Positions 16,238 through 56,097 of a DNA stretch of 64,000 bases are shown here, piece after piece. The stretch comes from Escherichia coli (GTDB lineage Bacteria; Pseudomonadota; Gammaproteobacteria; Enterobacterales; Enterobacteriaceae): assembly GCF_013122565.1 (NCBI RefSeq), contig NZ_CP053258.1. One strand, given 5' to 3'. Each line of letters opens with the position of its first letter. Positions within the stretch are counted from its first letter, which is position 1. The translations under genes were made by a program, and so were the position numbers. A model generated the notes under the pieces. It worked only from the letters and a program-made list of their open reading frames with translations. It ran no database searches and was not told where the DNA came from.

Positions 16238-19200
16238 TTAGAACGTTTTCTTGAAGTTCAGCATCACGCCTTTGTCGCTGATGCCGTCCTCTTTCCAGTT
16301 GTACGCATCCAGGTTCAGTGAGCTTTCTTTGCTGCTGTACTTCACGCCGACGCTTGCCAGGCTGTTGATGCCGCCACCCTTCTGACCGTCATCGACGTTA
16401 AAGTGCTGACTGCCTGCGCCTGCCAGGCTTGCCGTGCGCTGGCTCTTCGCGTAGCTCAGATTCGGCCCGCCTTCCAGCGTGGCGCTAGCGCTCCAGCCGT
16501 CTTTACCTGCGTAATCCAGTTTCAACCCGACGATGCTGTCCACCGCCGTTTCGCTGCCACTGTTCATATTCAGGTTAAAGTCTCCGGCATTGCGCTCCTG
16601 ATAGCCACCTTCCAGTGTGTGACGCAGTTTAACACCCGCATATGGCGTAACCTTCAGTCCTTCGCTCGGTTCGAAAGTCTTCGCCCCTTCGCTGCGGAAC
16701 TCCAGGTACTGCTGCTTCACGTCGGTATCAGCCGTTTTGTTTGTGTTGCTAAATGCAATCGAACGGCTGCTGTCAAGGTTGTGAACGTCATAACGCAATG
16801 CGTTATTCCAGTTCATGCCGTTGTCGAAGGACATCTGATGTTTCAGGCCAAAGAACTGGCTGTAGCCGCCGGTTACGCCGTTGTCGCCCGCTTTCTGCGC
16901 ACCATCGCCATCCAGACGCGCAATACCGTATTCCAGGCTCATGCTCTGGCTTTCGCTCAGGTCGATGGTTTTACGCAATGCCAGCATGTCGTACTCGGTA
17001 TTATTACCTAACTCGGCACGCGGATCGCCTTTCGCCACCACGTTGAACGCCAGACCATTGCCCACTTTCGGCGCGGCATCCGCCAGCATACTAAAGCGGT
17101 TGCTTAACACGCGCGCTTCACGGAACACCGTGGTCGCCAGGCTACCGCTGACCTGTTTCAGGGCGCTGTTCAGTTCGGCGGTGGTGCCAACGTTCAGGCT
17201 GGTATACAGCTCGTTGTTGGTGTAACCCGCATCCAGTGCCTTCGCGACGTCATTTACCGAAGCATCGGTTGCGACATCGGTGTAGGCATTTTTGCTCATG
17301 GTAACGTCAACGTTACCGTTGGCATCGGTGCTGCCTTTGGCGTTCCATACGACCGTAGAGGAAACGATGTTGTCCACACCGCTGATGTTTTCGCCTTTGA
17401 ATACATCGTTAACGACAACGGTGGTATCCGCTGTTCCTGCACTAAACCCGGCATTAACACTCACGTTGTCGCCAATCACCAGGTTATTCGCGCTGAGCGT
17501 ACCGGAACTCCCGTCGCTATTGGTACCGATGGTATAGTTGCTCAGCAGTTGCGGCGCATTTGAATCAGCAGGCGGGGTTGGAACATCACCTTGTGACGGC
17601 GTAGTTGATGCGTCTGGTACGGTGATATCCACAGTACCGTTGTGGTCGTTTTGTGTACCCGTTGTTCCAGGAGCATAAATATCGCATCCGGTATCACACA
17701 GCAGGTTAATTTCACCGTTGTTAATGATGGCTTTCGTTTGCCCACCAAACGCCCAGGAATTATCGGCATAGACATTAATCACACCCGTTTGCGTGTTATT
17801 AATTGTTGTTTCCCGACCATTGCCTTTAATACCAATTAAACCTTCGCCATTGGTTCCATCCTGTTGCCCCTGCTCAGTACCCACATTAATGGTGCCACTG
17901 TTCACCAACTGAACAACATAACTGGTTGTGCCGCCACTGATGCCCACCGCATTATCGCCCTGAACATTAATAACGCCAGCGTTAGCAAAGTTATAACCTC
18001 GTCCTAAATCAACCAACGGAGCCGCAGGGTTAATACCATTGATTACCCCTGTTTCTGTGTTCCAGATCCATTTACCTTTACTGTTCGAGCCAGTACTTTC
18101 GGTTTTGATCGCGCTGTAGCCATTTGTAGCCGTAATGGTTCCACGGTTAACCTGAGATACAGAATCCCCGGTTCTGGTTACATGAATAATCGCGTTTTCA
18201 CCGCCCGTTACCGCATTACCACTATTCGTCAGGGTCGCACCCGCTTCGTTGAAGAACAGGAAACTCCCGTTGATGAGTGATTGCCCATCTTCGGTCACCG
18301 TCATTTCACCGGTATTCACTACGTTCTGTTGATAGCTGTTGCCGGTAATTGAACCGCTGAACTCACCTTCGTTAAAGAAGGAAACCGCACCATTCAACGT
18401 AAGGAGATCTGTTGTCATGCTCCCGGTTTCACGGTTATAGATCGTGGTTTTGCTGTTAATACTGTCAACATCCAGGGTCCCACTATTCTCCAACCCTTGA
18501 GTGACACTCAGTTCGCCATTGATGGTCAGACTGGCATCAGGTTGGTTATATAACCAGCCGTTTGCATCAACATTGCCATTAAGCGTTTCATCTCCGTAGT
18601 TTGCCAGGTTATTAACAACGACAAAACCGTCGGTAGTTGTGGTTTTGCTGATGCTCTCCCCGCTACCAGACAACTCGCTAAGAACATCTTTGTCATCCGG
18701 CGTCACCCCCATATGGGAATCACTTTCATCCATTGGATTACCGAAAAGAGTAATTTTTCCGTAGTTGAGAATGGTACCGGTGCTATCTTTATAAAACGCC
18801 TGACCAATATCAGTATTAATATTAATCACACCATCCTGGTCATTAATGGCCAGACCACCTTGAATTGCCCCCATCGCGAACAACTGGTTATCTTGCTGCT
18901 TCGTCACACCCTCATCGGCGGTGAGATTGATCGTTCCCTGGTTGACAACGGTCCCGCCGCTCATCGCCAGCATACCAAAACCTTCGTTATTAACATTGAT
19001 GGTTCCGGTATTTAACCCACTGGCATCGCCATTTCCGATATCGGTTGACCCTACAACAACGCCACCGGACATAAGATAAGGATGGGGTGGTTGCCAGTAG
19101 GATTTACTAATGATATTGCCATCTTCATCAAGTTCGGGAACAAAACCATCGACATTGATTTCCCCGGCATTTGTCGCCGTGCCTTTAGATGCTGCAGCAG

Positions 19201-22200
19201 CATAGTTTCCCGCGCCTTGCAAATTAATGGTGGCGTCAGATTCATTCACTGTGATGCCGTAATCACTGGCCCACAGCCCGTAGTTGACACCGAAATACCA
19301 TTTCAGGGGGGATTCAGACATCCCGCCTGCGTATGCAGGTGTCGTTACAGAGATCAGATTAATAACCCCACCCGACGCATTCGTAACCTGAGAATTCTGG
19401 CCACGAGCACGCATTGTCCCCCCCCTGGAGAATTCCTCACCGCTAGGTTTGACATTAATAATTCCACTATTAGTGATATGTGCACCATTGTTAGCCGTCA
19501 TTAAATCCTGGCTATCCATTGTGTTAATCACACCTTTGTTTTCAACGCTGGACTGACTGCCAATAGCAGAAATAAGCGCACGTTCAAAGAAGAAAAAGTC
19601 GGTTTCCCTGGCTTTACTGGATATATCCGTTACAGCGTTTTCATCAAATATAACTTTTCCACCGTCCGCCACCGAGACCAACGTAAAGGCACCCAATTCC
19701 TGACGGGTATCCATTGTCGAATGACCACTAATGTTAACGGTATTGTCACCAATAACCGATACGCCATCTATAACATGTGCGGCGCTATCACCACTAATAT
19801 TAATACCGCCATCAATATTAACGGTATTCTTCTCGCCAGAAACAATTATGCCACTCACTAAATTTTCCTGGTGTAGCAGCTCCCCTTGTACGGTGATATC
19901 AACATGGCCACTAATATCTACAGTGTTATTTTTACCACTAATCGTTCCACCTGTTAATGCTGTGATTTGTGCATCAGGGTTATCGCCGAGGATGGAATTA
20001 ACATTGATGCTTCCGTCAACGCTAATATGGCTGTCATTACCCGTCAGACTGAAACCTGTAGCACCCGGCGCATTGCCCTCGCTGTCTGGTTGCTGGAATA
20101 CGTTAATATCGCCGCTTAATTGAACCTGTTCACGGTCACCCGCAATGGATACCCCAGTTCCGTACCGTGAAACATCAATTTCGCCCACGTTACCGAAAAC
20201 TTCATCATCACCATCAATCAGAATCCCCACAGAACCGGAATCCGTGACAACAATTTTGCCTTTATTACTTAACTGCGAGTTATTACCGGCAATATCAATA
20301 CCCGTTGCCCCTCCGCTGACGTAGAGGTCACCTTCCTGGCTAATTGTTGCATTGTGACCGGCAACTTTTGTCCCTACTGCATTCGCACCGTCAACCGTCA
20401 TATCCCCGGCGATATTCATCTCATTGCCATCGCCAGTGATGGTTATACCTGTGGCATTTTCACCCAAAATATTAAGATCATAGGTTGCCAGGGTTATACT
20501 ATTGTTGTCGCCGATAATCTCCATGCCAGTCGTATCGTCTTTAACCAGCATTGAGCCAGCAAGAGAAATACTGCTGCTGTCCCCGGTGATTTTTACACCA
20601 GTACCGCTATTTGTTGTGGTGATGTCTCCCACATTGACAAAGGTAGTATTATCACCATTGATTAACACGCCGTAGGGGTTTCCGTCACTGTCCGCCTGAC
20701 CTACATTGATATCACCAATGTTCATAAAGGTTGTTTGATCGCCATCCAGCAATACACCGATGGAAGTATCATCCACCACAGTAACATTACCCTTATTACT
20801 GACGAGAGTACCTTTACCCTCGGCGTCAATACCGTGTGCGCCACCGCTGACGTATAAATCACCCTGTTGCCTTACAATGGCATCTTCGCCGATAATTTTT
20901 GATCCCGTTGAATTTGCACCATCGACGGTCATGTCGCCTTTGATTTCAATGCGGGCATCATCCCCTGTAATCACACTCCCCGTGCCACCATTCGTGATTT
21001 CGACATCACCAACGGTGTTCAACGTAGTACGATCGCCATTGACAATAACGGCCGTACCACCATCGACATCTGTCTCACCATTATTAGTAATGGTGATATC
21101 GTCACCGGTAAGAATACCTACCACCGAACCTTCACCAATCGCGGTAGTTTGACCGTCGTTGTTCAGGGTGATGTCGTTACCGTCAACGTTTATCACAACG
21201 CCGCCATTCAGCGCGATGTTGCCGCCATGGTCGGTAATAGTGGCATCGTTAATATGGAAATGTTCGCCAGTTGTACCGTCTGCGGTGGTGAGTGACTCTA
21301 TGATTATTTCGATTTTTCCCGCTTCGTCATAGCGCCAGGTGGAGGTTCCGCTCGGATTGACGCCATTGAACGAAGCAGTGTTAGCCGCCTCGTCGACTAA
21401 CCAATCCTTTACGATTGTGGTAGTGCCGCCAGGTCCGGTAAGCGTATAGCTGCCATCGTCATTTTTGGTGTAGGTAAAGGTGGTATCACGTAATTTTAGG
21501 GTCTTCGCGTCCTGATCCCAGGTGACATCGTTTTTATAGACCACTGGATCGTGTTTAACTGGCGTGTCATCGCCACCGTCATCCGGGGTGTCATCGCCGC
21601 CATCATCTGGCGGGACGGGGGTGTCGCCGCCATCATCCGGCGGGACTGGTGTGTCGCCGCCATCATCCGGCGGGACTGGTGTATCACCGCCATCATCCGG
21701 CGGGACTGGTGTGTCGCCGCCATCATCCGGCGGGACTGGTGTGTCACCGCCATCATCCGGCGGGACAGGTGTATCACTGCCATCGTCTGGCGGGACTGGC
21801 GTGTCGCCGCCATCATCCGGCGGGATGGGTGTATCACCGCCATCATCCGGCGGGACGGGTGTATCACCGCCATCATCCGGCGGGACTGGCGTGTCGCCGC
21901 CATCATCCGGCGGGACGGGTGTATCACCACCATCATCCGGCGGGACTGGCGTGTCGCCGCCATCATCCGGCACCGGAGACGAATCGTCATGATGATTATT
22001 ATTATCGTGGAGTGCATATACTGCGACACCTGTGACTGCCGCTGCCAGCCCCACTGCAGCCCAGGGTAATAACTCATTATCTTCAACTGATTTACACTCT
22101 GCCGGCAGCTTTTCTAGCTGTTCTTTACTTAGTGATTTAATATTGGCCGGGCAGCTAATCTTGCTGGATTTACGAGATTCATCCGATGTTTCCGCTATCG

Positions 22201-22273
22201 ACGTATCTGCCGCCCATGTCTGGCTGCTTAACGCCATTGCAACACAGACACTGAGCAATTTTTTCCTTTGCAT
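16238..22273 (-). CDS. ydbA: autotransporter adhesin-like protein, intact 2011-aa form
   Basis: Uninterrupted 2011-codon ORF with signal peptide, N-terminal PDDGGDTPVP tandem repeats, long Gly/Thr/Asn-rich passenger region and C-terminal beta-barrel-like domain ending in F. The K-12 copy is split by IS elements (from memory). Confidence 0.85.
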   Translation of the reverse strand: MQRKKLLSVCVAMALSSQTWAADTSIAETSDESRKSSKISCPANIKSLSKEQLEKLPAECKSVEDNELLPWAAVGLAAAVTGVAVYALHDNNNHHDDSSPVPDDGGDTPVPPDDGGDTPVPPDDGGDTPVPPDDGGDTPVPPDDGGDTPIPPDDGGDTPVPPDDGSDTPVPPDDGGDTPVPPDDGGDTPVPPDDGGDTPVPPDDGGDTPVPPDDGGDTPVPPDDGGDDTPDDGGDDTPVKHDPVVYKNDVTWDQDAKTLKLRDTTFTYTKNDDGSYTLTGPGGTTTIVKDWLVDEAANTASFNGVNPSGTSTWRYDEAGKIEIIIESLTTADGTTGEHFHINDATITDHGGNIALNGGVVINVDGNDITLNNDGQTTAIGEGSVVGILTGDDITITNNGETDVDGGTAVIVNGDRTTLNTVGDVEITNGGTGSVITGDDARIEIKGDMTVDGANSTGSKIIGEDAIVRQQGDLYVSGGAHGIDAEGKGTLVSNKGNVTVVDDTSIGVLLDGDQTTFMNIGDINVGQADSDGNPYGVLINGDNTTFVNVGDITTTNSGTGVKITGDSSSISLAGSMLVKDDTTGMEIIGDNNSITLATYDLNILGENATGITITGDGNEMNIAGDMTVDGANAVGTKVAGHNATISQEGDLYVSGGATGIDIAGNNSQLSNKGKIVVTDSGSVGILIDGDDEVFGNVGEIDVSRYGTGVSIAGDREQVQLSGDINVFQQPDSEGNAPGATGFSLTGNDSHISVDGSINVNSILGDNPDAQITALTGGTISGKNNTVDISGHVDITVQGELLHQENLVSGIIVSGEKNTVNIDGGINISGDSAAHVIDGVSVIGDNTVNISGHSTMDTRQELGAFTLVSVADGGKVIFDENAVTDISSKARETDFFFFERALISAIGSQSSVENKGVINTMDSQDLMTANNGAHITNSGIINVKPSGEEFSRGGTMRARGQNSQVTNASGGVINLISVTTPAYAGGMSESPLKWYFGVNYGLWASDYGITVNESDATINLQGAGNYAAAASKGTATNAGEINVDGFVPELDEDGNIISKSYWQPPHPYLMSGGVVVGSTDIGNGDASGLNTGTINVNNEGFGMLAMSGGTVVNQGTINLTADEGVTKQQDNQLFAMGAIQGGLAINDQDGVININTDIGQAFYKDSTGTILNYGKITLFGNPMDESDSHMGVTPDDKDVLSELSGSGESISKTTTTDGFVVVNNLANYGDETLNGNVDANGWLYNQPDASLTINGELSVTQGLENSGTLDVDSINSKTTIYNRETGSMTTDLLTLNGAVSFFNEGEFSGSITGNSYQQNVVNTGEMTVTEDGQSLINGSFLFFNEAGATLTNSGNAVTGGENAIIHVTRTGDSVSQVNRGTITATNGYSAIKTESTGSNSKGKWIWNTETGVINGINPAAPLVDLGRGYNFANAGVINVQGDNAVGISGGTTSYVVQLVNSGTINVGTEQGQQDGTNGEGLIGIKGNGRETTINNTQTGVINVYADNSWAFGGQTKAIINNGEINLLCDTGCDIYAPGTTGTQNDHNGTVDITVPDASTTPSQGDVPTPPADSNAPQLLSNYTIGTNSDGSSGTLSANNLVIGDNVSVNAGFSAGTADTTVVVNDVFKGENISGVDNIVSSTVVWNAKGSTDANGNVDVTMSKNAYTDVATDASVNDVAKALDAGYTNNELYTSLNVGTTAELNSALKQVSGSLATTVFREARVLSNRFSMLADAAPKVGNGLAFNVVAKGDPRAELGNNTEYDMLALRKTIDLSESQSMSLEYGIARLDGDGAQKAGDNGVTGGYSQFFGLKHQMSFDNGMNWNNALRYDVHNLDSSRSIAFSNTNKTADTDVKQQYLEFRSEGAKTFEPSEGLKVTPYAGVKLRHTLEGGYQERNAGDFNLNMNSGSETAVDSIVGLKLDYAGKDGWSASATLEGGPNLSYAKSQRTASLAGAGSQHFNVDDGQKGGGINSLASVGVKYSSKESSLNLDAYNWKEDGISDKGVMLNFKKTF
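21571..21972 (-). repeat. tandem array of about 13 30-bp repeats inside ydbA (encoding PDDGGDTPVP units)
   Basis: Twelve near-identical head-to-tail 30-bp units (CATCATCCGGCGGGACTGGTGTGTCGCCGC on the plus strand) from 21601 to 21960, plus degenerate flanking units; in frame with ydbA. Confidence 0.95.
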
Positions 22274-28093: not shown

Positions 28094-31000
28094 ATGATTA
28101 CTATTGACGGTAATGGCGCGGTTGCTTCGGTGGCGTTTCGCACCAGTGAAGTTATCGCCATCTACCCTATTACCCCCAGTTCCACGATGGCAGAACAGGC
28201 AGATGCCTGGGCCGGAAACGGCTTAAAGAACGTTTGGGGAGACACACCACGCGTGGTTGAAATGCAGTCGGAAGCGGGTGCTATCGCTACCGTGCATGGC
28301 GCTTTGCAGACGGGTGCCCTTTCAACATCGTTTACGTCATCGCAGGGTTTGCTGCTGATGATACCGACGCTGTACAAACTGGCAGGCGAACTCACACCGT
28401 TTGTCCTGCATGTAGCGGCACGTACCGTTGCCACACATGCACTCTCTATTTTTGGCGATCATTCCGACGTTATGGCGGTGCGCCAGACGGGTTGCGCGAT
28501 GTTGTGTGCAGCAAACGTCCAGGAAGCGCAAGACTTTGCTCTCATTTCGCAAATCGCGACGCTGAAAAGCCGCGTGCCATTTATTCATTTCTTTGATGGT
28601 TTCCGCACGTCCCACGAAATCAATAAAATTGTCCCGCTGGCCGATGACACGATTCTTGATCTCATGCCGCAGGCCGAAATTGATGCTCATCGCGCCCGGG
28701 CGCTCAACCCGGAACATCCGGTGATCCGCGGTACGTCCGCCAATCCTGACACTTATTTCCAGTCACGCGAAGCCACCAACCCATGGTACAACGCAGTCTA
28801 TGACCATGTTGAACAGGCGATGAATGATTTCGCTGCCGCGACAGGTCGTCAGTATCAGCCGTTTGAGTATTACGGGCATCCGCAAGCGGAACGGGTGATA
28901 ATCCTGATGGGCTCTGCCATTGGCACCTGTGAAGAAGTGGTTGATGAATTGCTAACCCGTGGCGAAAAAGTCGGCGTGCTGAAAGTTCGCCTGTACCGCC
29001 CCTTCTCCGCCAAACACTTGCTACAAGCTCTGCCGGGATCCGTACGCAGCGTGGCGGTACTGGACAGAACCAAAGAACCCGGTGCCCAGGCAGAACCGCT
29101 CTATCTGGATGTAATGACCGCACTGGCAGAAGCCTTTAATAATGGCGAGCGCGAAACTCTGCCCCGTGTCATTGGTGGGCGCTATGGTCTTTCATCCAAA
29201 GAATTTGGCCCGGACTGTGTACTGGCGGTATTTGCCGAGCTCAACGAGGCTAAACCGAAAGCACGCTTTACGGTTGGTATTTACGATGATGTAACCAATC
29301 TGTCACTACCGTTGCCGGAAAACACCCTGCCAAACTCGGCGAAACTTGAAGCCTTGTTTTATGGCCTTGGTAGTGATGGCAGCGTTTCCGCGACCAAAAA
29401 CAATATCAAGATTATCGGTAATTCCACGCCGTGGTACGCACAGGGCTATTTTGTTTACGACTCCAAAAAGGCGGGCGGCCTGACAGTTTCTCACCTTCGC
29501 GTGAGCGAACAGCCGATTCGTTCCGCTTATCTCATTTCCCAGGCTGATTTTGTTGGCTGCCACCAGTTGCAGTTTATCGATAAATATCAGATGGCTGAGC
29601 GTTTAAAACCTGGCGGCATTTTCCTGCTCAACACGCCATACAGCGCAGATGAAGTGTGGTCGCGCTTGCCGCAAGAAGTTCAGGCCGTGCTAAACCAGAA
29701 AAAAGCGCGCTTCTATGTGATTAACGCAGCGAAAATCGCCCGCGAATGTGGGCTGGCGGCCCGTATTAATACCGTCATGCAGATGGCTTTTTTCCATCTG
29801 ACGCAAATTCTGCCTGGCGATAGCGCCCTCGCAGAATTGCAGGGTGCGATTGCCAAAAGTTACAGTAGCAAAGGCCAGGATCTGGTGGAGCGCAACTGGC
29901 AGGCTCTGGCGCTGGCGCGTGAATCCGTAGAAGAAGTTCCGTTGCAGCCGGTTAATCCGCACAGCGCCAGTCGACCGCCTGTGGTTTCCGATGCCGCTCC
30001 TGATTTCGTGAAAACCGTAACCGCTGCGATGCTCGCCGGGCTTGGTGATGCCCTCCCCGTTTCGGCGCTGCCGCCAGACGGCACCTGGCCGATGGGCACC
30101 ACGCGCTGGGAAAAACGCAATATCGCCGAAGAGATCCCCATCTGGAAAGAGGAACTCTGTACCCAATGTAACCACTGCGTCGCTGCTTGCCCACACTCCG
30201 CTATTCGCGCAAAAGTGGTACCACCTGAAGCGATGGAAAACGCCCCTGCCAGCCTGCATTCGCTGGATGTGAAATCGCGTGATATGCGCGGGCAGAAATA
30301 TGTCTTGCAGGTGGCACCGGAAGATTGCACCGGTTGTAACCTGTGCGTCGAAGTTTGCCCGGCGAAAGACCGTCAGAATCCAGAGATTAAAGCCATCAAT
30401 ATGATGTCTCGCCTGGAACATGTCGAAGAAGAGAAAATCAATTACGATTTCTTCCTCAACCTGCCAGAAATCGACCGTAGCAAACTGGAACGTATTGATA
30501 TTCGTACATCGCAGCTGATTACACCGCTGTTTGAATATTCCGGTGCTTGTTCCGGTTGTGGCGAGACGCCGTATATTAAATTGCTGACTCAGCTCTATGG
30601 CGACCGGATGTTGATCGCTAACGCCACCGGCTGTTCTTCAATTTATGGCGGTAACCTGCCCTCCACACCGTATACTACCGATGCCAATGGTCGTGGACCG
30701 GCATGGGCGAACTCGCTGTTTGAAGATAACGCCGAATTTGGCCTGGGTTTCCGCCTGACGGTCGATCAACACCGTGTCCGGGTGCTGCGTCTGCTGGATC
30801 AATTTGCCGATAAAATCCCTGCGGAATTACTGACGGCGTTGAAATCAGACGCTACGCCAGAGGTTCGTCGAGAACAGGTCGCAGCTTTACGCCAGCAACT
30901 CAACGATGTTGCCGAAGCACATGAACTGCTGCGTGACGCAGATGCTCTGGTGGAAAAATCAATCTGGCTGATTGGTGGCGACGGCTGGGCTTACGATATC

Positions 31001-31618
31001 GGCTTTGGCGGTCTGGATCATGTATTGAGTTTGACGGAAAACGTCAACATTCTGGTGCTGGATACGCAATGCTATTCCAACACCGGTGGTCAGGCGTCGA
31101 AAGCGACACCGCTGGGTGCAGTAACTAAGTTCGGCGAGCACGGCAAACGTAAAGCGCGTAAAGATCTTGGCGTCAGTATGATGATGTACGGTCATGTTTA
31201 TGTGGCGCAGATTTCTCTCGGCGCGCAGCTGAACCAGACGGTGAAAGCGATTCAGGAAGCGGAAGCGTATCCGGGACCATCGCTTGTCATTGCTTATAGC
31301 CCGTGTGAAGAGCATGGTTACGATCTGGCTCTCAGCCACGACCAGATGCGCCAACTCACTGCTACCGGCTTCTGGCCGCTATATCGCTTCGATCCTCGTC
31401 GTGCCGATGAAGGCAAACTGCCGCTGGCGCTGGATTCACGCCCGCCGTCAGAAGCACTGGAAGAAACGTTACTTCATGAGCAGCGTTTCCGTCGTCTGAA
31501 TTCGCAGCAGCCAGAAGTGGCAGAACAGTTATGGAAAGATGCTGCAGCTGATTTGCAAAAACGCTATGACTTCCTGGCACAAATGGCCGGAAAAGCGGAA
31601 AAAAGCAACACCGATTAA
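28094..31618 (+). CDS. pfo: pyruvate:flavodoxin oxidoreductase
   Basis: 1174-aa ORF with two ferredoxin-type 4Fe-4S Cys clusters (CxxCxxCxxxCP) and a TPP-binding C-terminal domain; also known as ydbK. Confidence 0.95.
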   Translation: MITIDGNGAVASVAFRTSEVIAIYPITPSSTMAEQADAWAGNGLKNVWGDTPRVVEMQSEAGAIATVHGALQTGALSTSFTSSQGLLLMIPTLYKLAGELTPFVLHVAARTVATHALSIFGDHSDVMAVRQTGCAMLCAANVQEAQDFALISQIATLKSRVPFIHFFDGFRTSHEINKIVPLADDTILDLMPQAEIDAHRARALNPEHPVIRGTSANPDTYFQSREATNPWYNAVYDHVEQAMNDFAAATGRQYQPFEYYGHPQAERVIILMGSAIGTCEEVVDELLTRGEKVGVLKVRLYRPFSAKHLLQALPGSVRSVAVLDRTKEPGAQAEPLYLDVMTALAEAFNNGERETLPRVIGGRYGLSSKEFGPDCVLAVFAELNEAKPKARFTVGIYDDVTNLSLPLPENTLPNSAKLEALFYGLGSDGSVSATKNNIKIIGNSTPWYAQGYFVYDSKKAGGLTVSHLRVSEQPIRSAYLISQADFVGCHQLQFIDKYQMAERLKPGGIFLLNTPYSADEVWSRLPQEVQAVLNQKKARFYVINAAKIARECGLAARINTVMQMAFFHLTQILPGDSALAELQGAIAKSYSSKGQDLVERNWQALALARESVEEVPLQPVNPHSASRPPVVSDAAPDFVKTVTAAMLAGLGDALPVSALPPDGTWPMGTTRWEKRNIAEEIPIWKEELCTQCNHCVAACPHSAIRAKVVPPEAMENAPASLHSLDVKSRDMRGQKYVLQVAPEDCTGCNLCVEVCPAKDRQNPEIKAINMMSRLEHVEEEKINYDFFLNLPEIDRSKLERIDIRTSQLITPLFEYSGACSGCGETPYIKLLTQLYGDRMLIANATGCSSIYGGNLPSTPYTTDANGRGPAWANSLFEDNAEFGLGFRLTVDQHRVRVLRLLDQFADKIPAELLTALKSDATPEVRREQVAALRQQLNDVAEAHELLRDADALVEKSIWLIGGDGWAYDIGFGGLDHVLSLTENVNILVLDTQCYSNTGGQASKATPLGAVTKFGEHGKRKARKDLGVSMMMYGHVYVAQISLGAQLNQTVKAIQEAEAYPGPSLVIAYSPCEEHGYDLALSHDQMRQLTATGFWPLYRFDPRRADEGKLPLALDSRPPSEALEETLLHEQRFRRLNSQQPEVAEQLWKDAAADLQKRYDFLAQMAGKAEKSNTD

Positions 31619-31646
31619 ATGCACTGGATAAGGATTATCCAATTCT

Positions 31647-31685
31647 AAAAAAAAGCCCGGACGACTGTTCGGGCTTGTCTTTTTA
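31647..31685. terminator. bidirectional intrinsic terminator shared by pfo and micC
   Basis: A8 - GCCCGGACGACTGTTCGGGC - TTGTCTTTTT: a GC-rich hairpin flanked by an A-run and a T-rich run. Confidence 0.8.
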
Positions 31686-31756
31686 TATGTTAGAAAATCA
31701 GTGGCAATGCAATGGCCCAACAGAAAATAAAATCTGTGACAATAAAGGCATATAAC
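31647..31756 (-). ncRNA. micC: MicC small regulatory RNA (OmpC-repressing)
   Basis: Minus strand begins GTTATATGCCTTTATTGTCACAGATTTTATTTTCTG and ends in a GC hairpin plus U8, matching the MicC sequence as I recall it; lies between pfo and ompN. Confidence 0.8.
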
Positions 31757-31983
31757 CCGCGCAGAATAACGTATAGCAAATTAAAAGTATAATTTTTATT
31801 TTGTATGTATTATCTTCGATACATTCACCAGACTTATTATCATTTCAGAAGAATTATTTGATTAAGGTTTTACTTAAGGCGTAACAAATGATATTTATCG
31901 GCTAACTGAACTTCTCCTTTAGGATGTTTTCACTCCCCGAAATGGGGATAAAAGGCAAATAAAATAACTAAAGGATTTATTCA

Positions 31984-33117
31984 ATGAAAAGCAAAGTACT
32001 GGCACTTTTAATTCCTGCCCTGCTCGCCGCAGGTGCTGCACATGCAGCCGAAGTTTATAATAAAGACGGCAATAAATTAGATCTGTATGGCAAAGTTGAT
32101 GGCCTGCATTATTTTTCTGATAATTCAGCGAAAGATGGCGACCAGAGCTATGCGCGTCTGGGTTTTAAAGGCGAAACCCAAATTAACGATCAACTTACTG
32201 GCTACGGTCAATGGGAATACAATATTCAGGCAAACAACACTGAATCTTCAAAAAACCAGTCATGGACCCGTCTGGCATTTGCCGGACTGAAATTTGCAGA
32301 TTACGGTTCTTTCGATTACGGACGTAATTATGGCGTAATGTACGACATCGAAGGCTGGACCGATATGCTGCCTGAATTTGGCGGTGACTCTTATACCAAT
32401 GCAGACAACTTTATGACTGGTCGTGCCAATGGCGTCGCGACTTATCGTAATACTGATTTCTTCGATCTGGTAAATGGTCTGAACTTCGCGGTGCAGTATC
32501 AAGGTAACAACGAAGGTGCCAGTAATGGTCAGGAAGGCACCAACAACGGACGTGATGTTCGCCATGAAAACGGTGACGGCTGGGGTCTTTCCACAACATA
32601 TGATTTAGGCATGGGCTTTAGCGCTGGTGCGGCATACACCTCATCTGACCGCACCAATGACCAGGTTAACCATACTGCGGCAGGTGGTGATAAAGCAGAC
32701 GCGTGGACTGCTGGGCTAAAATACGATGCTAACAATATTTACCTGGCAACCATGTATTCAGAAACGCGTAATATGACCCCGTTTGGCGACAGCGATTATG
32801 CAGTTGCGAACAAAACCCAGAACTTTGAAGTTACTGCACAATACCAGTTTGATTTTGGTCTGCGTCCGGCAGTCTCTTTCCTGATGTCTAAAGGCCGTGA
32901 CCTTCACGCTGCCGGTGGTGCAGACAACCCGGCAGGTGTTGATGATAAAGATCTGGTTAAATACGCCGATGTTGGCGCAACTTACTATTTCAATAAAAAC
33001 ATGTCCACCTATGTTGACTATAAAATCAACCTGTTGGATGAAGATGACAGTTTCTACGCTGCCAACGGCATCTCTACCGATGATATTGTTGCTTTAGGTC
33101 TGGTTTATCAGTTCTAA
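31984..33117 (+). CDS. ompN: outer-membrane porin OmpN
   Basis: 377-aa ORF with signal peptide, general porin (OmpC/OmpF family) sequence and C-terminal YQF. Confidence 0.9.
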
Positions 33118-33125
33118 ATCCTCCT

Positions 33126-33149
33126 GCCCGCTGTTTTGGCGGGCTTTTT
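33126..33149 (+). terminator. intrinsic terminator of ompN
   Basis: Stem GCCCGC / GCGGGC with loop TGTTTTG, followed by T5. Confidence 0.8.
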
Positions 33150-33176
33150 CTGCTTATTCTTCCTCCTTTGATCTAA

Positions 33177-33692
<516 letters not shown>

Positions 33693-33699
33693 CACTAAC

Positions 33700-33724
33700 G
33701 CCCGCACATTGCTGCGGGCTTTTT
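33700..33724 (+). terminator. intrinsic terminator of uspF
   Basis: Stem GCCCGCA / TGCGGGC followed by T5, 8 nt after the uspF stop. Confidence 0.8.
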
Positions 33725-33867
33725 GATTCATTTCGCAAATGTGCTGACATTTTCCCCTCTAATCCGTACCATACACGCCACAGTTTTTATATCAGATTTC
33801 TTATGCTGGGCGTTCCGGCATGACGCATACTCTTCTGATGCCATATAACGAATTGAGTCGCTTTTAA

Positions 33868-34803
33868 ATGTCGCAAAATCAAGAAATTAGCAAGAAAGAA
33901 CAATACAATCTGAACAAATTACAAAAACGCCTGCGTCGTAACGTGGGCGAAGCCATAGCTGACTTCAATATGATTGAAGAAGGCGATCGCATCATGGTTT
34001 GCCTCTCCGGGGGTAAAGACAGCTATACCATGCTGGAGATTCTGCGCAATTTGCAGCAAAGCGCGCCAATCAATTTTTCACTGGTGGCTGTTAACCTCGA
34101 TCAAAAGCAACCGGGCTTCCCGGAACACGTTCTGCCCGAGTATCTTGAAAAGCTGGGCGTTGAGTACAAGATTGTTGAAGAGAACACTTACGGTATCGTG
34201 AAAGAGAAGATTCCAGAGGGCAAAACCACTTGCTCACTGTGTTCTCGGCTACGTCGCGGTATCCTTTATCGCACCGCAACGGAACTGGGGGCGACGAAGA
34301 TCGCGTTGGGCCACCATCGTGACGATATCCTGCAAACGTTGTTCTTAAATATGTTCTACGGCGGCAAGATGAAAGGTATGCCTCCGAAACTGATGAGCGA
34401 TGATGGCAAACATATCGTTATTCGTCCACTGGCCTACTGCCGCGAGAAAGATATTCAGCGATTTGCCGATGCAAAAGCGTTCCCGATTATTCCGTGCAAC
34501 CTGTGCGGTTCACAGCCTAACCTGCAACGACAAGTGATTGCTGACATGTTGCGTGACTGGGATAAACGTTATCCGGGGCGTATCGAGACGATGTTCAGCG
34601 CGATGCAGAATGTGGTGCCGTCGCATCTGTGCGATACCGACCTGTTCGATTTTAAAGGCATTACCCACGGTTCTGAAGTGGTTAACGGCGGTGATCTGGC
34701 GTTTGATCGCGAAGAGATCCCACTACAACCGGCGGGCTGGCAGCCTGAAGAAGATGAAAATCAGTTGGATGAGTTACGGCTGAATGTGGTTGAAGTGAAA
34801 TAA
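33868..34803 (+). CDS. ttcA: tRNA 2-thiocytidine biosynthesis protein TtcA
   Basis: 311-aa ORF with PP-loop SGGKDS and CxxC motifs. Confidence 0.9.
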
Positions 34804-34810
34804 CCAGGAT

Positions 34811-34884
34811 AGCGCCCGATGCGCAAGCGTATCGGGCTACTCTAATGGAGGCCGGATAAGACGCGGCCAGCGTCGCATCCGGCA
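34811..34884. repeat. REP/BIME element between convergent ttcA and dbpA
   Basis: Two imperfect palindromic units (GCGCCCGATGCGCAAGCGTATCGGGC and GGCCGGATAAGACGCGGCCAGCGTCGCATCCGGC), typical enterobacterial REP sequences. Confidence 0.8.
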
Positions 34885-34931
34885 ATCCCGAATAAGATGT
34901 TTACTCTTGCACCCGGCAATTCAACATCTCA

Positions 34932-36305
34932 TTATTTTAATAACCGCACCCGGCACGTTTTTCCTTTAATCTTCCCGCCCTGTAACTGTTTCCATGCTTT
35001 ATGAGCAACAGCCTGACGGACCGCGACATAGACATGCGCCGGATGCACGGCGATTTTGCCAATATCTGCGCCATCAAGCCCGATATCTCCTGTCAGTGCA
35101 CCTAATATATCACCCGGGCGCATTTTGGCTTTTTTCCCGCCATCGATACACAACGTTGCCATTTCTGCTTCCAGCGTCACAATGGAACTATTAGCTGGCG
35201 GCGTTTGCCAGTTAAGTGTTATCTGCAACATGTCAGAAATGATATTGGCCCGCTGTGCTTCTTCCGGAGCACAGAAACTGATCGCCAGACCGCTATTTCC
35301 TGCACGAGCTGTACGACCGATGCGATGTACATGAACTTCAGGGTCCCACGCCAGCTCAAAGTTCACCACCAGCTCAAGCGATTTAATATCCAGACCACGC
35401 GCAGCAACATCAGTCGCGACCAGTACACGGGCGCTACCGTTAGCAAAACGTACCAGGGTCTGATCGCGATCGCGTTGCTCCAGATCGCCATGTAACGACA
35501 ATGCGCTTTGCCCTACTTCATTCAGCGCGTCACACACAGCCTGGCAATCTTTTTTGGTGTTACAAAACACCACACAAGACGATGGCTGATGCAAACTTAA
35601 TAACCGTTGCAACAGAGGAATTTTGCCCTTGCTGGAGGTCTCATAAAATTGTTGTTCAATAGGCGGCAGTGCATCTGTTGTGTCTATTTCAATCGCCAAA
35701 GCATCGCGTTGCACTCGTCCGCTGATTGCAGCGATGGCTTCCGGCCAGGTTGCCGAAAACAGAAGCGTCTGTCGAGATGCTGGCGCAAAACGGATGACAT
35801 CATCAATGGCATCGCTAAATCCCATATCCAGCATGCGGTCGGCCTCATCCATCACCAAAGTATTCAGCGCATCCAGTGATACCGTGCCTTTTTGCAAGTG
35901 ATCCAGCAAACGACCCGGCGTTGCCACGATAATATGCGGCGCATGTTGCAACGAATCACGCTGCATACCGAACGGTTGACCACCGCACAACGTCAAAATT
36001 TTGGTATTTGGCAGAAAACGCGCCAGCCGACGCAATTCACCTGCCACCTGATCCGCCAGTTCACGCGTAGGACACAGCACTAAAGCCTGGGTTTGAAATA
36101 GCGACGCATCAATTTGCTGTAACAAGCCGAGGCCAAAAGCCGCCGTTTTGCCGCTGCCGGTTTTCGCCTGCACGCGAACATCTTTTCCGGCAAGGATCGC
36201 CGGAAGCGCGGCGGCCTGCACCGGCGTCATAGTTAAATAACCCAACTCATTAAGGTTCGTGAGTTGGGCGGGAGGCAAAACATTCAGGGTAGAAAAAGCG
36301 GTCAC
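34932..36305 (-). CDS. dbpA: ATP-dependent RNA helicase DbpA (DEAD-box)
   Basis: 457-aa ORF with Walker A AKTGSGKT and DEAD motif (VMDEADRMLD); starts with GTG at 36305. Confidence 0.95.
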   Translation of the reverse strand: MTAFSTLNVLPPAQLTNLNELGYLTMTPVQAAALPAILAGKDVRVQAKTGSGKTAAFGLGLLQQIDASLFQTQALVLCPTRELADQVAGELRRLARFLPNTKILTLCGGQPFGMQRDSLQHAPHIIVATPGRLLDHLQKGTVSLDALNTLVMDEADRMLDMGFSDAIDDVIRFAPASRQTLLFSATWPEAIAAISGRVQRDALAIEIDTTDALPPIEQQFYETSSKGKIPLLQRLLSLHQPSSCVVFCNTKKDCQAVCDALNEVGQSALSLHGDLEQRDRDQTLVRFANGSARVLVATDVAARGLDIKSLELVVNFELAWDPEVHVHRIGRTARAGNSGLAISFCAPEEAQRANIISDMLQITLNWQTPPANSSIVTLEAEMATLCIDGGKKAKMRPGDILGALTGDIGLDGADIGKIAVHPAHVYVAVRQAVAHKAWKQLQGGKIKGKTCRVRLLK

Positions 36306-36334
36306 AATCTATTCTCGTGGTCATCGACGCAAAG

Positions 36335-36508
36335 TTAGCAGGCGCGTATCCTCGCAGATCTACGCTCACGATGCGACAATTTAATCGGTTCTTCATCGGG
36401 TGGTGGGTCAGGCATGGGTTGCGGGCGAGGGATCGGATCGGGCACTGGAACAGGATCGCCAGGAATCGGTTCAGGGACAGGAATTTGCAAATAAATAAGT
36501 GTCGTCAT
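36335..36508 (-). CDS. candidate 57-aa proline-rich small ORF upstream of dbpA
   Basis: ATG at 36508 preceded by GGAGGG with a 4-nt spacer; translation MTTLIYLQIPVPEPIPGDPVPVPDPIPRPQPMPDPPPDEEPIKLSHRERRSARIRAC; stop 29 nt before the dbpA GTG. Below the 60-aa cutoff of the supplied ORF track. Confidence 0.35.
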   Translation of the reverse strand: MTTLIYLQIPVPEPIPGDPVPVPDPIPRPQPMPDPPPDEEPIKLSHRERRSARIRAC

Positions 36509-36565
36509 ATTTCCCTCCGGTCATTGGGTGGACTCTTAAAGGGTAGACGCTGATAAATAACAGGC

Positions 36566-36687
36566 AAAAAAAAGCCGACTCATCAAAGTCGGCGTCGTAC
36601 GAATCAATTGTGCTATGCAGTAATTCAAAAAAGGAAGTAAGACAATATGGAGCGCAACGCCCATCGCTTGACGTTGCATTCACCTGC
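36566..36687 (-). ncRNA. fnrS: FnrS small regulatory RNA (FNR-activated)
   Basis: Minus strand reads GCAGGTGAATGCAACGTCAAGCGATGGGCG ... GCCGACTTTGATGAGTCGGC + T8, about 122 nt, matching FnrS as I recall it; lies between zntB and dbpA with an FNR box at about -42. Confidence 0.85.
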
Positions 36688-36722
36688 AAGGGAGATATTG
36701 CCCTGAATGGGTAGAGAGTTTA

Positions 36723-36736
36723 TTGACTTCGCTCAA
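36723..36736 (-). promoter_or_regulatory. FNR-binding site upstream of fnrS
   Basis: TTGAC-N4-CTCAA (consensus TTGAT-N4-ATCAA) centred about 42 bp upstream of the inferred FnrS 5' end. Confidence 0.7.
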
Positions 36737-36782
36737 ACTTTGCGGCGTTTTTGTATACAGACAGCCGGAAAAATTGCTTTTG

Positions 36783-37787
<1,005 letters not shown>

Positions 37788-38020
37788 TTATTTTGTAGTC
37801 TAGCCTTCTGGCCCTGTTACGCAACATCTCATCACCCCATTACCCTGAAATGATTAATAAAATTCTGTCTAAATTGAATACAAAAAGCAAAATGCTTTTC
37901 CGTATACAAACCGTGTGAAGTGTTAAATAGCGTCTATCATTATCAGAATTATCTGATCATATGACGTGGCTTTTTTGCGATCGGATAACAACAAAAATTG
38001 ATAAAAATAACGGGATCTCA

Positions 38021-39253
38021 ATGATTACGCACAACTTCAATACCCTGGACTTACTCACCAGTCCTGTCTGGATCGTTTCGCCCTTTGAGGAACAGTTAAT
38101 TTATGCCAATAGCGCGGCGCGACTGTTGATGCAAGACCTCACGTTTAGTCAGCTACGAACCGGACCCTATTCCGTCTCCTCACAAAAAGAACTGCCGAAA
38201 TACCTCTCCGATCTGCAAAACCAACACGATATTATCGAAATCCTCACCGTTCAGCGTAAAGAAGAGGAAACAGCATTAAGCTGTCGGCTTGTTTTGCGAA
38301 AGCTGACAGAAGCAGAACCGGTAATTATTTTCGAAGGTATCGAAGCGCCGGCAACGCTGGGTTTAAAAGCCAGCCGCTCGGCAAATTATCAGCGCAAAAA
38401 ACAAGGTTTTTATGCGCGTTTTTTTCTGACTAACTCTGCACCAATGTTGTTGATTGACCCCTCACGAGATGGCCAAATCGTCGATGCTAACCTCGCCGCG
38501 CTCAATTTCTATGGTTATAACCATGAAACGATGTGCCAGAAACATACCTGGGAAATTAATATGCTCGGGCGTCGCGTCATGCCTATCATGCATGAAATTT
38601 CGCATTTACCCGGTGGTCATAAACCTTTGAATTTTGTTCATAAACTGGCGGATGGTTCTACTCGTCATGTGCAGACCTATGCCGGGCCGATTGAAATTTA
38701 TGGCGACAAGCTCATGTTATGTATTGTGCATGATATTACTGAGCAAAAACGGCTGGAGGAGCAGCTGGAACATGCTGCTCACCATGACGCGATGACCGGA
38801 TTACTGAATCGGCGACAGTTTTATCACATTACCGAGCCAGGCCAAATGCAGCACCTCGCCATCGCTCAGGATTACAGCTTGTTGCTCATCGACACCGATC
38901 GTTTTAAACACATTAACGATCTCTATGGGCATTCTAAAGGTGATGAGGTGTTATGCGCCCTCGCCCGCACCCTCGAAAGTTGCGCTCGTAAAGGCGATTT
39001 GGTGTTTCGTTGGGGAGGCGAAGAGTTTGTCTTATTGCTACCAAGGACCCCACTGGATACCGCGCTTTCGCTGGCTGAAACTATCCGTGTAAGCGTGGCA
39101 AAAGTGAGTATTTCGGGCTTACCACGCTTTACCGTCAGCATTGGTGTGGCGCATCACGAAGGAAATGAAAGCATCGATGAACTGTTTAAACGCGTTGATG
39201 ATGCTTTGTATCGGGCGAAAAATGATGGACGCAACCGCGTGCTGGCGGCATAA
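38021..39253 (+). CDS. dgcM: diguanylate cyclase with PAS and GGDEF domains
   Basis: Longest ORF starts at 37961; ATG at 38021 (MITHNFNTL...) gives 410 aa; GGEEF active-site motif present. Confidence 0.85.
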   Translation: MITHNFNTLDLLTSPVWIVSPFEEQLIYANSAARLLMQDLTFSQLRTGPYSVSSQKELPKYLSDLQNQHDIIEILTVQRKEEETALSCRLVLRKLTEAEPVIIFEGIEAPATLGLKASRSANYQRKKQGFYARFFLTNSAPMLLIDPSRDGQIVDANLAALNFYGYNHETMCQKHTWEINMLGRRVMPIMHEISHLPGGHKPLNFVHKLADGSTRHVQTYAGPIEIYGDKLMLCIVHDITEQKRLEEQLEHAAHHDAMTGLLNRRQFYHITEPGQMQHLAIAQDYSLLLIDTDRFKHINDLYGHSKGDEVLCALARTLESCARKGDLVFRWGGEEFVLLLPRTPLDTALSLAETIRVSVAKVSISGLPRFTVSIGVAHHEGNESIDELFKRVDDALYRAKNDGRNRVLAA

Positions 39254-48451: not shown

Positions 48452-48694
48452 GATGTAATCCTTGTGCAGACAAATTTCTTGTTACCTAAACGTAACAATA
48501 CCATGACATTTCACCGTTGTCTGCTCTGAAAAGCTCACCTCTTAGCTGGATTTACAATCAACGCATTGATTAGTTAGCTAATGTTGCTACTTCCTTCCCT
48601 GACTATTGATGATCTGAATGAATTGTCGCGGTAAAATAGCCCCGCCAGGGGTTTCCGGCATGACGACAATTATCTGGAGGAGCCTGATAAAACA

Positions 48695-51390: not shown

Positions 51391-51572
51391 AAGTTTCCCT
51401 CTAACCGACATTAAAATTGATGCGTAATTATTTGTTTCGCCTTAAAGAAATGCAAACAACTTCCATCAAAAAAGTGATACAAGATCGATAACATAGCGTT
51501 GAAGAAAAGGATTTGATAATCCGCAAAATTTGCACAACACTGCCTGTAATACTTCCTGAACCAGAGACGATC

Positions 51573-53359: not shown

Positions 53360-53863
53360 ATGTCACAAACCGTTCATTTCCAGGGCAACCCGGTTACAGT
53401 CGCCAACTCCATCCCGCAGACGGGTAGCAAAGCGCAGACTTTTACTCTCGTGGCAAAAGATCTGTCTGACGTCACCCTCGGTCAGTTTGCGGGTAAACGC
53501 AAAGTGCTGAACATTTTCCCGAGTATTGATACCGGTGTTTGCGCCGCATCAGTACGTAAGTTTAACCAACTGGCAACCGAGATCGACAACACCGTTGTGC
53601 TGTGTATCTCTGCCGATCTGCCGTTCGCCCAGTCTCGTTTCTGCGGCGCAGAAGGTCTGAACAACGTTATCACCCTCTCCACTTTCCGTAACGCTGAATT
53701 TCTGCAAGCCTACGGTGTGGCAATTGCTGATGGCCCACTGAAAGGTCTGGCAGCGCGTGCCGTTGTGGTTATTGATGAAAATGACAACGTGATTTTCAGC
53801 CAGCTGGTGGATGAAATCACCACCGAGCCGGATTACGAAGCAGCTCTGGCTGTACTGCGCTAA
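53360..53863 (+). CDS. tpx: thiol peroxidase
   Basis: 167-aa ORF starting [20 protein letters not shown] with peroxidatic Cys motif (SIDTGVC). Confidence 0.95.
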
Positions 53864-53871
53864 ACAACTGT

Positions 53872-53910
53872 GCCGTTCACTGAATCACCACCGGTGAACG
53901 GCAGTTTTTT
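53872..53910 (+). terminator. intrinsic terminator of tpx
   Basis: Stem GCCGTTCAC (53872..53880) / GTGAACGGC (53894..53902), then AG + T6 (53905..53910), 9 nt after the tpx stop. Confidence 0.85.
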
Positions 53911-54017
53911 GATCTACCAGTCCCACTATTTTCCAGAGTTCCTGCCACTATTCCCCCTAACCGTTGTGCATTAAGATTGCTCTTTGCCAATATTGGCCCA
54001 GCGGAGTGATGACTATT

Positions 54018-56060
54018 ATGGATGATAAACAAATTACGGTCTGGCTTAAACACAATTGCTGTTCAACGGACATTCCTGCCATTGCCGAGGCACTAACGAA
54101 CCATGCAGAATGGCTTTTAGAGCTAGCGCCAGATCCTATTGAACAAGGTAGTTCATGTTTACCGCCGACAGCTGCAGCCGGTATTTTTCTTGGCGCAGCG
54201 GCGATGGTTCACTGCGGCGAGGCTAGTGGTGCAGAAACCTGGCTCGAAGCAGCCATTACTGATTACCATTTCTTTAATCCAAATGGATATAGTTCATGGA
54301 GAGGCAGTACGCCTGTTTTTACAGCATTATCGCGTTACCCGGCATTAAGAATGGTGTTATTTAACGCCGCTTGCGCAATGGAAGACTGGAATAAAGCATC
54401 CGCTGTTCTTGAATCGCTTTTCCATGCCAGCGATGTCCCGGAAGATAACCCTGTCGCCCCAAATTTTACCCCTTATGCGCTGAAAGCGTTTATCGCGGAT
54501 TACCACCCGTTAGGACCAGCTCATTATGATGAAACCTGGTTGCTGGCAAAACAAGCGTGGTTAATTAATGCGAGCGTTCTGGATGAGCGAACCTGCAATA
54601 CCTGGAAGCAATATACCCGCCACTTGCGCCATTTGATCCACAATGCACAGTTTGCCGATGCGCTCTCTTTTGTACGCAGTAAAAAAGAACCGTTAAATCA
54701 TATCCATACCTACTCAGACTTTTATCTGTATGCGATTGGTTTATTTTCTTATACTGGTCAGCTAAATGAAGCGCTGACCTGGATAAAACAGTTAATCCAC
54801 AACAATGATGGTCATTTCTGTGATCTTTTCGTTTCAACTGGCAAAGAGCGCCGAATAAAGCCTGAACTTAGTACCTTGCTGAATAATCTCTTGCACAGCG
54901 CAGAGTTTCAGGCGTTGCAGGATAAATATCTCACCGTCGGACATGATGTTGTGCATTCTGGTCCCTTCATGTCAGTTTATGAAAAGGTTCTTGGCGGAAA
55001 GTCCCGAAAGCGCTGCGCGATTAGTCGAAAATTAATCTCGCCCGGCGAAGCGGTTTATGAATATCGTCAGCTGGATAGTGTGGCATATATTGCAGCGAAA
55101 GCGGCCTTTCAGGCATCTGCGCTAAATAATATCGCCCTCCGGCATACAAATGATAGTTATCAGTGGCAGGATTTTGCCGCCCAATGGCCTCGTCGGGGTG
55201 CGCTTTCTCACCCGGATATTGCCCGTTATATGTTTGAGCGCCAGAAAGGGAAATGTTTTGATGCCGCAGAGTTTATTCAACTGATTGCCGAACCGTTTGT
55301 CTTTCCGATGCGTTTCAGATGGGTTGCCGGGTTGTCCTTTGAATTACATCAGTACCCGGATGCCTATTTCGTAAATGACAATATGGCGGGTGAATTTGTT
55401 AATCTCTGCTGGATGGCTATAAAATGCGGACATGCTGGCGACATTTTTAAACAACTGGCGAAGGAGTCGCATGACGTTGCCGACCCTATTTACGCTATGC
55501 TCGCCACGTTTGACCGCGCTGATTGCCGCAGCGCTGCCGCCGCGCACTTTGGACGACCGGAGCTTGCGGAAATAATGGCGCTGGCTTTCAGTTCGAGGTT
55601 ATCGCTCGACAGCGTCCTTACCATCGCTGAGTTTGGTAAAAATCAGCCGCGCTTTTCACATGCGTTGGCAACGGCCCTCCTGCGTTACAACCTGCACATC
55701 TACTCAAACTATATGCCGCAGGTTAACTGGTTCCTTCAGGGGCTGGAACACTATGCTTTGGCAAAAGGCGGTCAACTTTTAAATTTCTTTGTGCATATTC
55801 CAGAACAAATTCCCGTTCTGGCGACCATGCTGGAACATGGCGTATTAGTGCGTGGGATCGGTGAAGGTGCCTATGATGGTTATGATAATTCAGCAAATTC
55901 ATTTCATCATGCCGCCGTGATGCACTGCCTCACGCACGCGCCGGAAAAAGTTCGCTACTGGATGGAAACACCCTGGATTCAGAACTATTTAGTGAATGCG
56001 CCGCTGCGTCAAACGGCGCGCCATGTGGAAGCCTGGCATAAAAAGTTTGGCATCAAATGA
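54018..56060 (+). CDS. uncharacterized ~680-aa protein with no recognisable motif, encoded on an insertion between tpx and tyrR
   Basis: Uninterrupted ORF (longest form from TTG 53964, 698 codons); ATG at 54018 sits about 7 nt after a GGAGTGAT Shine-Dalgarno-like sequence (alternative ATG at 54009). No Walker A, HTH, signal peptide or nuclease motif seen; rare codons CGA and ATA are used; bounded by the tpx terminator and an inverted repeat at the tyrR 3' end. Confidence 0.7.
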   Translation: MDDKQITVWLKHNCCSTDIPAIAEALTNHAEWLLELAPDPIEQGSSCLPPTAAAGIFLGAAAMVHCGEASGAETWLEAAITDYHFFNPNGYSSWRGSTPVFTALSRYPALRMVLFNAACAMEDWNKASAVLESLFHASDVPEDNPVAPNFTPYALKAFIADYHPLGPAHYDETWLLAKQAWLINASVLDERTCNTWKQYTRHLRHLIHNAQFADALSFVRSKKEPLNHIHTYSDFYLYAIGLFSYTGQLNEALTWIKQLIHNNDGHFCDLFVSTGKERRIKPELSTLLNNLLHSAEFQALQDKYLTVGHDVVHSGPFMSVYEKVLGGKSRKRCAISRKLISPGEAVYEYRQLDSVAYIAAKAAFQASALNNIALRHTNDSYQWQDFAAQWPRRGALSHPDIARYMFERQKGKCFDAAEFIQLIAEPFVFPMRFRWVAGLSFELHQYPDAYFVNDNMAGEFVNLCWMAIKCGHAGDIFKQLAKESHDVADPIYAMLATFDRADCRSAAAAHFGRPELAEIMALAFSSRLSLDSVLTIAEFGKNQPRFSHALATALLRYNLHIYSNYMPQVNWFLQGLEHYALAKGGQLLNFFVHIPEQIPVLATMLEHGVLVRGIGEGAYDGYDNSANSFHHAAVMHCLTHAPEKVRYWMETPWIQNYLVNAPLRQTARHVEAWHKKFGIK

Positions 56061-56068
56061 ACGTTGCC

Positions 56069-56089: not shown

Positions 56090-56097
56090 CAGCACAA

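Follow-up and report, generated by a model that had tools for sequence, protein, structure and literature searches.

What does the interval between uspF and ttcA hold in an Escherichia coli strain whose ttcA appears undisturbed, given that this is where the cryptic prophage Rac resides in K-12? There, Rac sits between ttcA and the fragment ttcC (Liu et al. 2015, Sci Rep 5:16074, PMC4632033). A first-pass annotation of the DNA studied here, a stretch of 64,000 nucleotides of contig NZ_CP053258.1 (hereinafter the window), started from a K-12 arrangement with Rac at the 5′ end of ttcA and ttcC next to uspF, and on this basis read positions 33693–33950 as the apparently native, phage-free locus. 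This layout agrees with the annotation of MG1655, in which Rac spans 1411899–1434958, with ttcA (1411013–1411948) and intR at one end and the 51-bp pseudogene ttcC (1434958–1435008) and uspF at the other. We find that the segment 33892–33917 of the window, lying in codons 9–17 of ttcA, is almost certainly an unoccupied attB for Rac-family lambdoid prophages. The empty site is correctly identified, ordinary, and of a kind already published (PMC4632033); what is mildly new are a 15-bp bound on the crossover, the recovery of attP in viral contigs and an association between the alleles at the two prophage junctions.

The uspF–ttcA locus and the Rac junctions of K-12

The locus lies in the gene order ydbK–ompN–uspF–ttcA–dbpA–zntB, with ydbK at 28094–31618, ompN at 31984–33117, dbpA at 34932–36305 (minus strand) and zntB at 36783–37766 (minus strand), and the same gene names appear in the RefSeq annotation of matching genomes. 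The left-hand host flank of the attachment site is uspF (33258–33692, plus strand), which begins with an ATG at 33258, has a stop codon ending at 33692, and codes for a 144-residue universal stress protein F with a full-length match to the Pfam Usp domain (PF00582, E 3.6e-31). Its intrinsic terminator (33700–33724, plus strand), recovered by a terminator scan and folding, starts eight bases past the uspF stop and consists of the hairpin GCCCGCA-cattgc-TGCGGGC at 33700–33719 followed by TTTTT; the 7-bp stem has six G–C pairs and closes a 6-nt loop, with a minimum free energy of −14.1 kcal/mol. The alignment shows the same terminator in K-12. The 175-bp intergenic region (33693–33867, plus strand) constitutes the native upstream or promoter region of ttcA. 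Within it, the segment 33744–33772 holds one weak sigma-70-like match that is no better than expected from shuffled sequence, and an Rfam scan of 30000–39000 found no family in the spacer. The same scan recovered two full-length sRNA genes in the neighborhood, both placed as in K-12: MicC upstream of ompN (31639–31759, minus strand) and FnrS between zntB and dbpA (36570–36687, minus strand). Downstream of the spacer, ttcA (33868–34803, plus strand) is an intact, uninterrupted frame of 311 codons for the tRNA 2-thiocytidine-32 synthetase with its PP-loop domain (PF01171). Thus, the description of an intact ttcA lying 175 bp after uspF, with an intrinsic terminator between them, holds in every element and position.

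To map the K-12 junctions, we used a three-way alignment together with a BLAST comparison between the window and 106 kb of K-12 sequence. Colinearity with the window extends to 33917 on the uspF/ttcC side of K-12 (BLAST segment 22677–33917) and starts at 33875 on its intR/ttcA side (BLAST segment 33875–48577), such that the homologies of the two junctions overlap on the window at 33875–33917. Over 33693–33917, the K-12 host flanks depart from the window by just one 1-nt indel in a T-run and two SNPs. The indel, a single T after 33783, is the sole difference between the uspF–ttcA spacer and the uspF–ttcC spacer of K-12; elsewhere in ttcA, K-12 and the window differ by 20 substitutions. The ttcC stub of K-12 translates to 17 residues identical to the N-terminus of the window TtcA. 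Both K-12 junctions hence map inside 33693–33950 and neither falls outside it, bearing out the claim of a phage-free native locus at the Rac site, and aligning the ttcA–intR and ttcC–uspF junctions narrows their exact common core to 26 bp at 33892–33917.

These alignments also bear on the notion that Rac attaches outside this interval altogether, or that uspF and ttcA were brought together by an imprecise deletion of a prophage. We found nothing in its favor beyond the precedent of an unrelated imprecise loss in strain CAVP776. With both K-12 junctions mapping to 33875–33917, a window colinear base for base with both K-12 host flanks and a full-length ttcA standing against it, we assign this reading a next to negligible probability.

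Consistent with an unoccupied site, the uspF and ttcA flanks are contiguous, with no sequence interposed. Megablast returned no match between the 64-kb window and the 23-kb Rac prophage of K-12, and tblastn with 15 Rac proteins, including IntR, XisR, RecE, RecT, RacR, KilR and StfR, gave no hit at E ≤ 1e-3 across the 64-kb window. The parts of the window that have no K-12 counterpart (1–22676 and 53860–56100) are of non-prophage nature, the former carrying aldA, hrpA, ynb genes and an intact ydbA-type autotransporter.

Several further differences from K-12 were observed along the window. The K-12 feaR–feaB–tynA–paa cluster is absent, with a synteny break at 22677, and the autotransporter frame (16238–22273, minus strand) codes for an intact ydbA/BigA-type protein of 2011 residues, while in K-12 the ydbA gene is interrupted by IS2 and IS30. 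At 48574–48577 the window has no IS5 where K-12 has IS5F, and at about 51448–51477, between mppA and the mpaA side, approximately 2.4 kb of K-12 (1390724–1393139, with ycjY and pgrR) is missing. Conversely, the 2.2-kb segment at 53860–56100, between tpx and tyrR, is absent from K-12 and displays a GC content down to 0.43–0.48 as compared to about 0.53 in its flanks. It holds one open reading frame (53964–56060, plus strand) of up to 698 codons, for which we obtained no hit in Pfam, NCBIfam, PADLOC, PHROGs or the PDB sequences; the segment is present in 32 of 5426 complete E. coli genomes at 94–97.6% identity, where its product is always labeled a hypothetical protein. Among complete RefSeq genomes of E. 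coli, the nearest shares 98.8% identity with the window over 25 kb (23000–47900) and about 96% over 1–22700. As the best identity over those 25 kb is just 98.8%, the lineage has no close representative among the 5426 complete genomes.

The attachment core and its counterpart in phage DNA

The 26-bp core, AAGAAAGAACAATACAACCTGAACAA, is found exactly at both Rac junctions of K-12 (1411899–1411924 and 1434959–1434984), the two copies being 23060 bp apart. The window has a single copy at 33892–33917, AAGAAAGAACAATACAATCTGAACAA, which is identical to the K-12 attL/attR sequence at 25 of 26 positions, the exception being position 18, where K-12 has C. The same 26 bp are annotated as the attP/attB sites in the GenBank record of Rac-SA53 (KU052037), and in occupied genomes the match to the window runs out at 33917, where the core ends. 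A search of 33860–33950 for inverted repeats of at least 6 nt, such as might mark core-type integrase binding sites, returned just an unrelated TTTAAA palindrome.

Similarity between the two K-12 junctions extends for another 24 nt leftward of the core, with seven differences between the bacterial version, ATGTCGCAAAATCAAGAAATTAGC, and the phage version, ATGCAAGAAAATCAACAAATTACA. In the window, this stretch corresponds to the first eight codons of ttcA (33868–33891, plus strand) and is wholly of the bacterial type. These are the codons that are imperfectly imitated in the Rac-type attP and replaced on integration. Because the phage brings its own start codon and its own imitation of these eight codons, the TtcA of K-12 begins with MQENQQIT and that of the window with MSQNQEIS. 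Overall, the two proteins are identical at 305 of 311 positions (98%), and four of the six differences fall in this imitated stretch, at residues 2, 3, 6 and 8.

Beyond E. coli, a sample of GTDB species representatives showed the exact 26-bp core in many Citrobacter and in representatives of Enterobacter, Lelliottia, Phytobacter, Mangrovibacter, Shimwellia and Ca. Pantoea formicae. Judged at the nucleotide level, the attachment target thus appears strongly conserved across several enterobacterial genera, and such conservation would make it a durable target for phages. Several species of Citrobacter have phage-type codons (ATGCAAGA.AATCAACAAGTTACA) ahead of the core, suggesting that Rac-like prophages might occupy ttcA in those species too.

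The attP predicted from the two K-12 junctions is found contiguous in five IMG/VR contigs, in which the IntR gene is followed by a ttcA mimic of 17 codons terminated by TAA, by the core and by the right arm of the phage, with no host genes (uspF or the body of ttcA) near attP in any of the five. Two of these contigs have a full-length IntR, with 99–100% identity, while in the remaining three it is truncated or partial. The GenBank phage collection has no record spanning both arms; Rac-SA53, vB_EcoS-683R6 and the record named Salmonella phage SPF_0923 are prophage-derived entries with host flanks. In the last of these the flank is of the E. coli ydbK–ompN–uspF type, and hence the record is an excerpt of a prophage rather than a free phage genome.

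The catalytic roles of IntR and XisR are known from the literature and from their families: the tyrosine integrase IntR, joined by XisR for excision, would recombine the core at 33892–33917 with the identical core of attP. The latter would lie directly downstream of intR and supply its own ATG plus eight codons (MQENQQIT) that mimic the beginning of ttcA, after which comes the core. By this route, integration would keep ttcA full length, albeit with an upstream region supplied by the phage and four altered N-terminal residues, and would leave the original promoter region and codons 1–17 stranded next to uspF, where they form the ttcC stub, with 23–52 kb of prophage between the stub and ttcA. 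By the same literature and family knowledge, ttcA in a lysogen would be expressed from signals on the phage side. As there is no integration in the window, its ttcA retains the native upstream region and the MSQNQEIS N-terminus, and the strain is accordingly one without a Rac-type prophage at ttcA. From the sequence, TtcA is predicted to be made with its native N-terminus and under its native upstream region.

This configuration has been met before in experiments on K-12. Rac excision driven by IntR and XisR alters four N-terminal residues of TtcA owing to the imperfect match of attL and attR, and strains of E. coli and Shigella without a rac-like prophage carry the post-excision form TtcA′, which was termed the ancient copy (PMC4632033); the window thus belongs to this TtcA-prime class. 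The account of Rac excision and TtcA′ is repeated in PMC11014345 and PMC6379469, and under carbenicillin the Rac-altered N-terminus has been tied to a slight difference in fitness (PMC4632033). A 2023 paper reports “three base changes (Q6E, T8S)” along with a 23060-bp deletion after Rac excision; we infer that its product is the same TtcA′, with the deletion placed in the shared AAAATCAA run and thereby absorbing the differences in codons 2–3.

Occupancy across E. coli and the allele at 33909

Among the 5426 complete E. coli genomes, 2487–2488 (46%) have a contiguous uspF–ttcA site and 2908 (54%) show intR abutting ttcA, i.e., the Rac-type junction. As the two counts cover essentially all genomes, the locus presents a simple dimorphism of about 46:54 and offers a clean presence/absence marker in E. 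coli, although its importance goes little beyond such bookkeeping. The K-12-type right phage arm is present in at least 1608 genomes. In CAVP776, where the match to the window stops at 33880, we considered a different integration and rejected it in favor of an IS1-associated deletion, with IS1 next to uspF and ttcA lost. Near-complete Rac-like prophages of about 50 kb were observed at ttcA in SCU-316, 042 and the SPF_0923 record, in all of which a sitABCD iron/manganese transporter cargo adjoins the uspF-side junction; the SCU-316 prophage additionally holds the anti-phage genes iteA/iteS.

With more than half of the genomes occupied, gain and loss would be frequent, and the window site might be an attB restored by precise IntR/XisR-mediated excision of a Rac-like prophage in the past of this lineage. 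This would refine rather than contradict its identification as an empty attB. Precise Rac excision yields exactly this sequence (PMC4632033, PMC11014345), and the flanking haplotypes at 33891, 33909 and 33930 (C-C-C, T-T-T and C-T-T) are shuffled among empty and occupied sites. However, a cured site is identical in sequence to a naive one, so that the window itself argues neither way, and its flanks have no phage-derived alleles, with 33868–33891 being fully bacterial. We see a past excision as possible yet somewhat unlikely.

Natural variants of the core bound the point of strand exchange. On the intR side, the junctions of the lysogens SA53 and 042 have a phage version of the core, AAGAAAGAGATATACAACCTGAACAA, with GAT at positions 9–11, contiguous with a diverged left arm of the phage, while their uspF-side junction keeps the bacterial ACA at these positions. 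The presence of GAT on one side and ACA on the other places the crossover rightward of position 11, in the stretch ATACAA(C/T)CTGAACAA. In the window, this corresponds to the 15-bp sub-segment ATACAATCTGAACAA (33903–33917), which must contain the strand-exchange (overlap) region.

The one position at which the window core departs from that of K-12 falls inside this sub-segment. It is a synonymous C-to-T change at 33909, core position 18, giving AAT for AAC (Asn14). Allele counts from seed-restricted searches mark T as the minority allele: it adjoins the bacterial right flank in 164 of the 5426 genomes, of which about 130 show the empty-site pattern (including IAI39, SMS-3-5 and CE10), and occurs at the uspF-side junction of at least 41 lysogens and at the intR-side junction of about 30. 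The natural Rac-type lysogen SCU-316 has T at both junctions, with the exact core variant of the window, while 042 has T on the uspF side and C on the intR side, and 23CRST011 the reverse. The T-bearing lysogens on either side, together with the T/T configuration of SCU-316, rule out the T allele as an absolute block to integration; by these genomic counts, it does not appear to prevent lysogeny. Taken with the published excision experiments in K-12, the natural T-allele lysogens further indicate that the window allele is probably competent for integration.

Both junctions carry T in 13 of the 41 genomes with T on the uspF side, as against about 0.4 expected if the alleles were independent, a comparison in which the genomes are phylogenetically non-independent. 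The excess could reflect shared ancestry, T-allele phages or the location of position 18 inside the overlap. Haplotype parsimony over 33891, 33909 and 33930, using 23CRST011 and 042, did not place position 18 on either side of the crossover, as the C-C-C and T-T-T haplotypes, on which the alternative model depends, are indeed seen at empty sites. We regard it as quite unlikely, though worth stating, that core position 18 lies inside the IntR overlap and that the window allele is a partly refractory attB. Were this so, a C-allele phage entering a T-allele host would form a heteroduplex at both junctions and give rise to T/T, C/C and both mixed pairs; the T/T excess, the two heteroallelic configurations and the apparent under-occupancy of T hosts would then be explained without invoking T-allele phages, and natural variation would map the Rac overlap to a few bases around 33909.

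A stronger version would have the window empty precisely because its T within the overlap makes it a poor or refractory attB, partly immune to the common C-allele Rac phages. In line with this, the SNP sits in the 15-bp block holding the crossover, all five attP contigs carry C at position 18, the T-allele genomes appear mostly empty and T is paired with T across the junctions in the excess noted above. Nevertheless, the T lysogens on both sides attest to the use of T sites, heteroallelic lysogens of both kinds are known (042 and 23CRST011), the junction counts come from genomes related by descent, and the absence of T-allele or GAT-type attP matches in IMG/VR, set against just 10 C-allele hits, is uninformative. 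We accordingly hold immunity as the cause of the vacancy to be very unlikely, and retain the reading of the window site as an ordinary empty attB.

Relationship to known attachment sites

The closest known counterpart of the window site is the K-12 attB formed after Rac excision (PMC4632033), which shares the locus, the position of the 26-bp core and the native MSQNQEIS N-terminus. Relative to the K-12 reconstruction, the window has three synonymous SNPs (33891 C, 33909 T and 33930 C), constituting a minority haplotype, and it is a natural site, whereas the TtcA′ site of K-12 came from induced excision. A second set of comparisons is offered by the occupied loci. CP-933R and Sp10 of O157:H7 share the Rac site (PMC4632033), and they, along with Rac-SA53 and the sitABCD-bearing prophages of 042 and SCU-316, show the same core and a uspF-side junction ending at the same base. 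Unlike in the window, which has no phage arm, ttcA is occupied in all of these, and the arms themselves differ, with an O157-type right arm and the GAT-variant left arm of SA53 and 042.

Among other prophages, e14 at icd offers a close parallel in that its attP likewise holds an imperfect duplicate of a gene terminus, leaving a pseudo-fragment at the other junction and, as with Rac, a functional target gene with a few residue changes (PMC6379469). The two differ in the end of the gene that they replace: e14 replaces the 3′ end of icd, whereas for Rac it is the 5′ end of ttcA, and with it the promoter and the translation start. At the attB of lambda, too, phage and host have a short core in common, acted on by a lambda-family tyrosine integrase and an excisionase. 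In comparison to it, the Rac core is distinguished by 26 bp of identity lying within a coding region; no inverted repeat of 6 nt or more is evident there.
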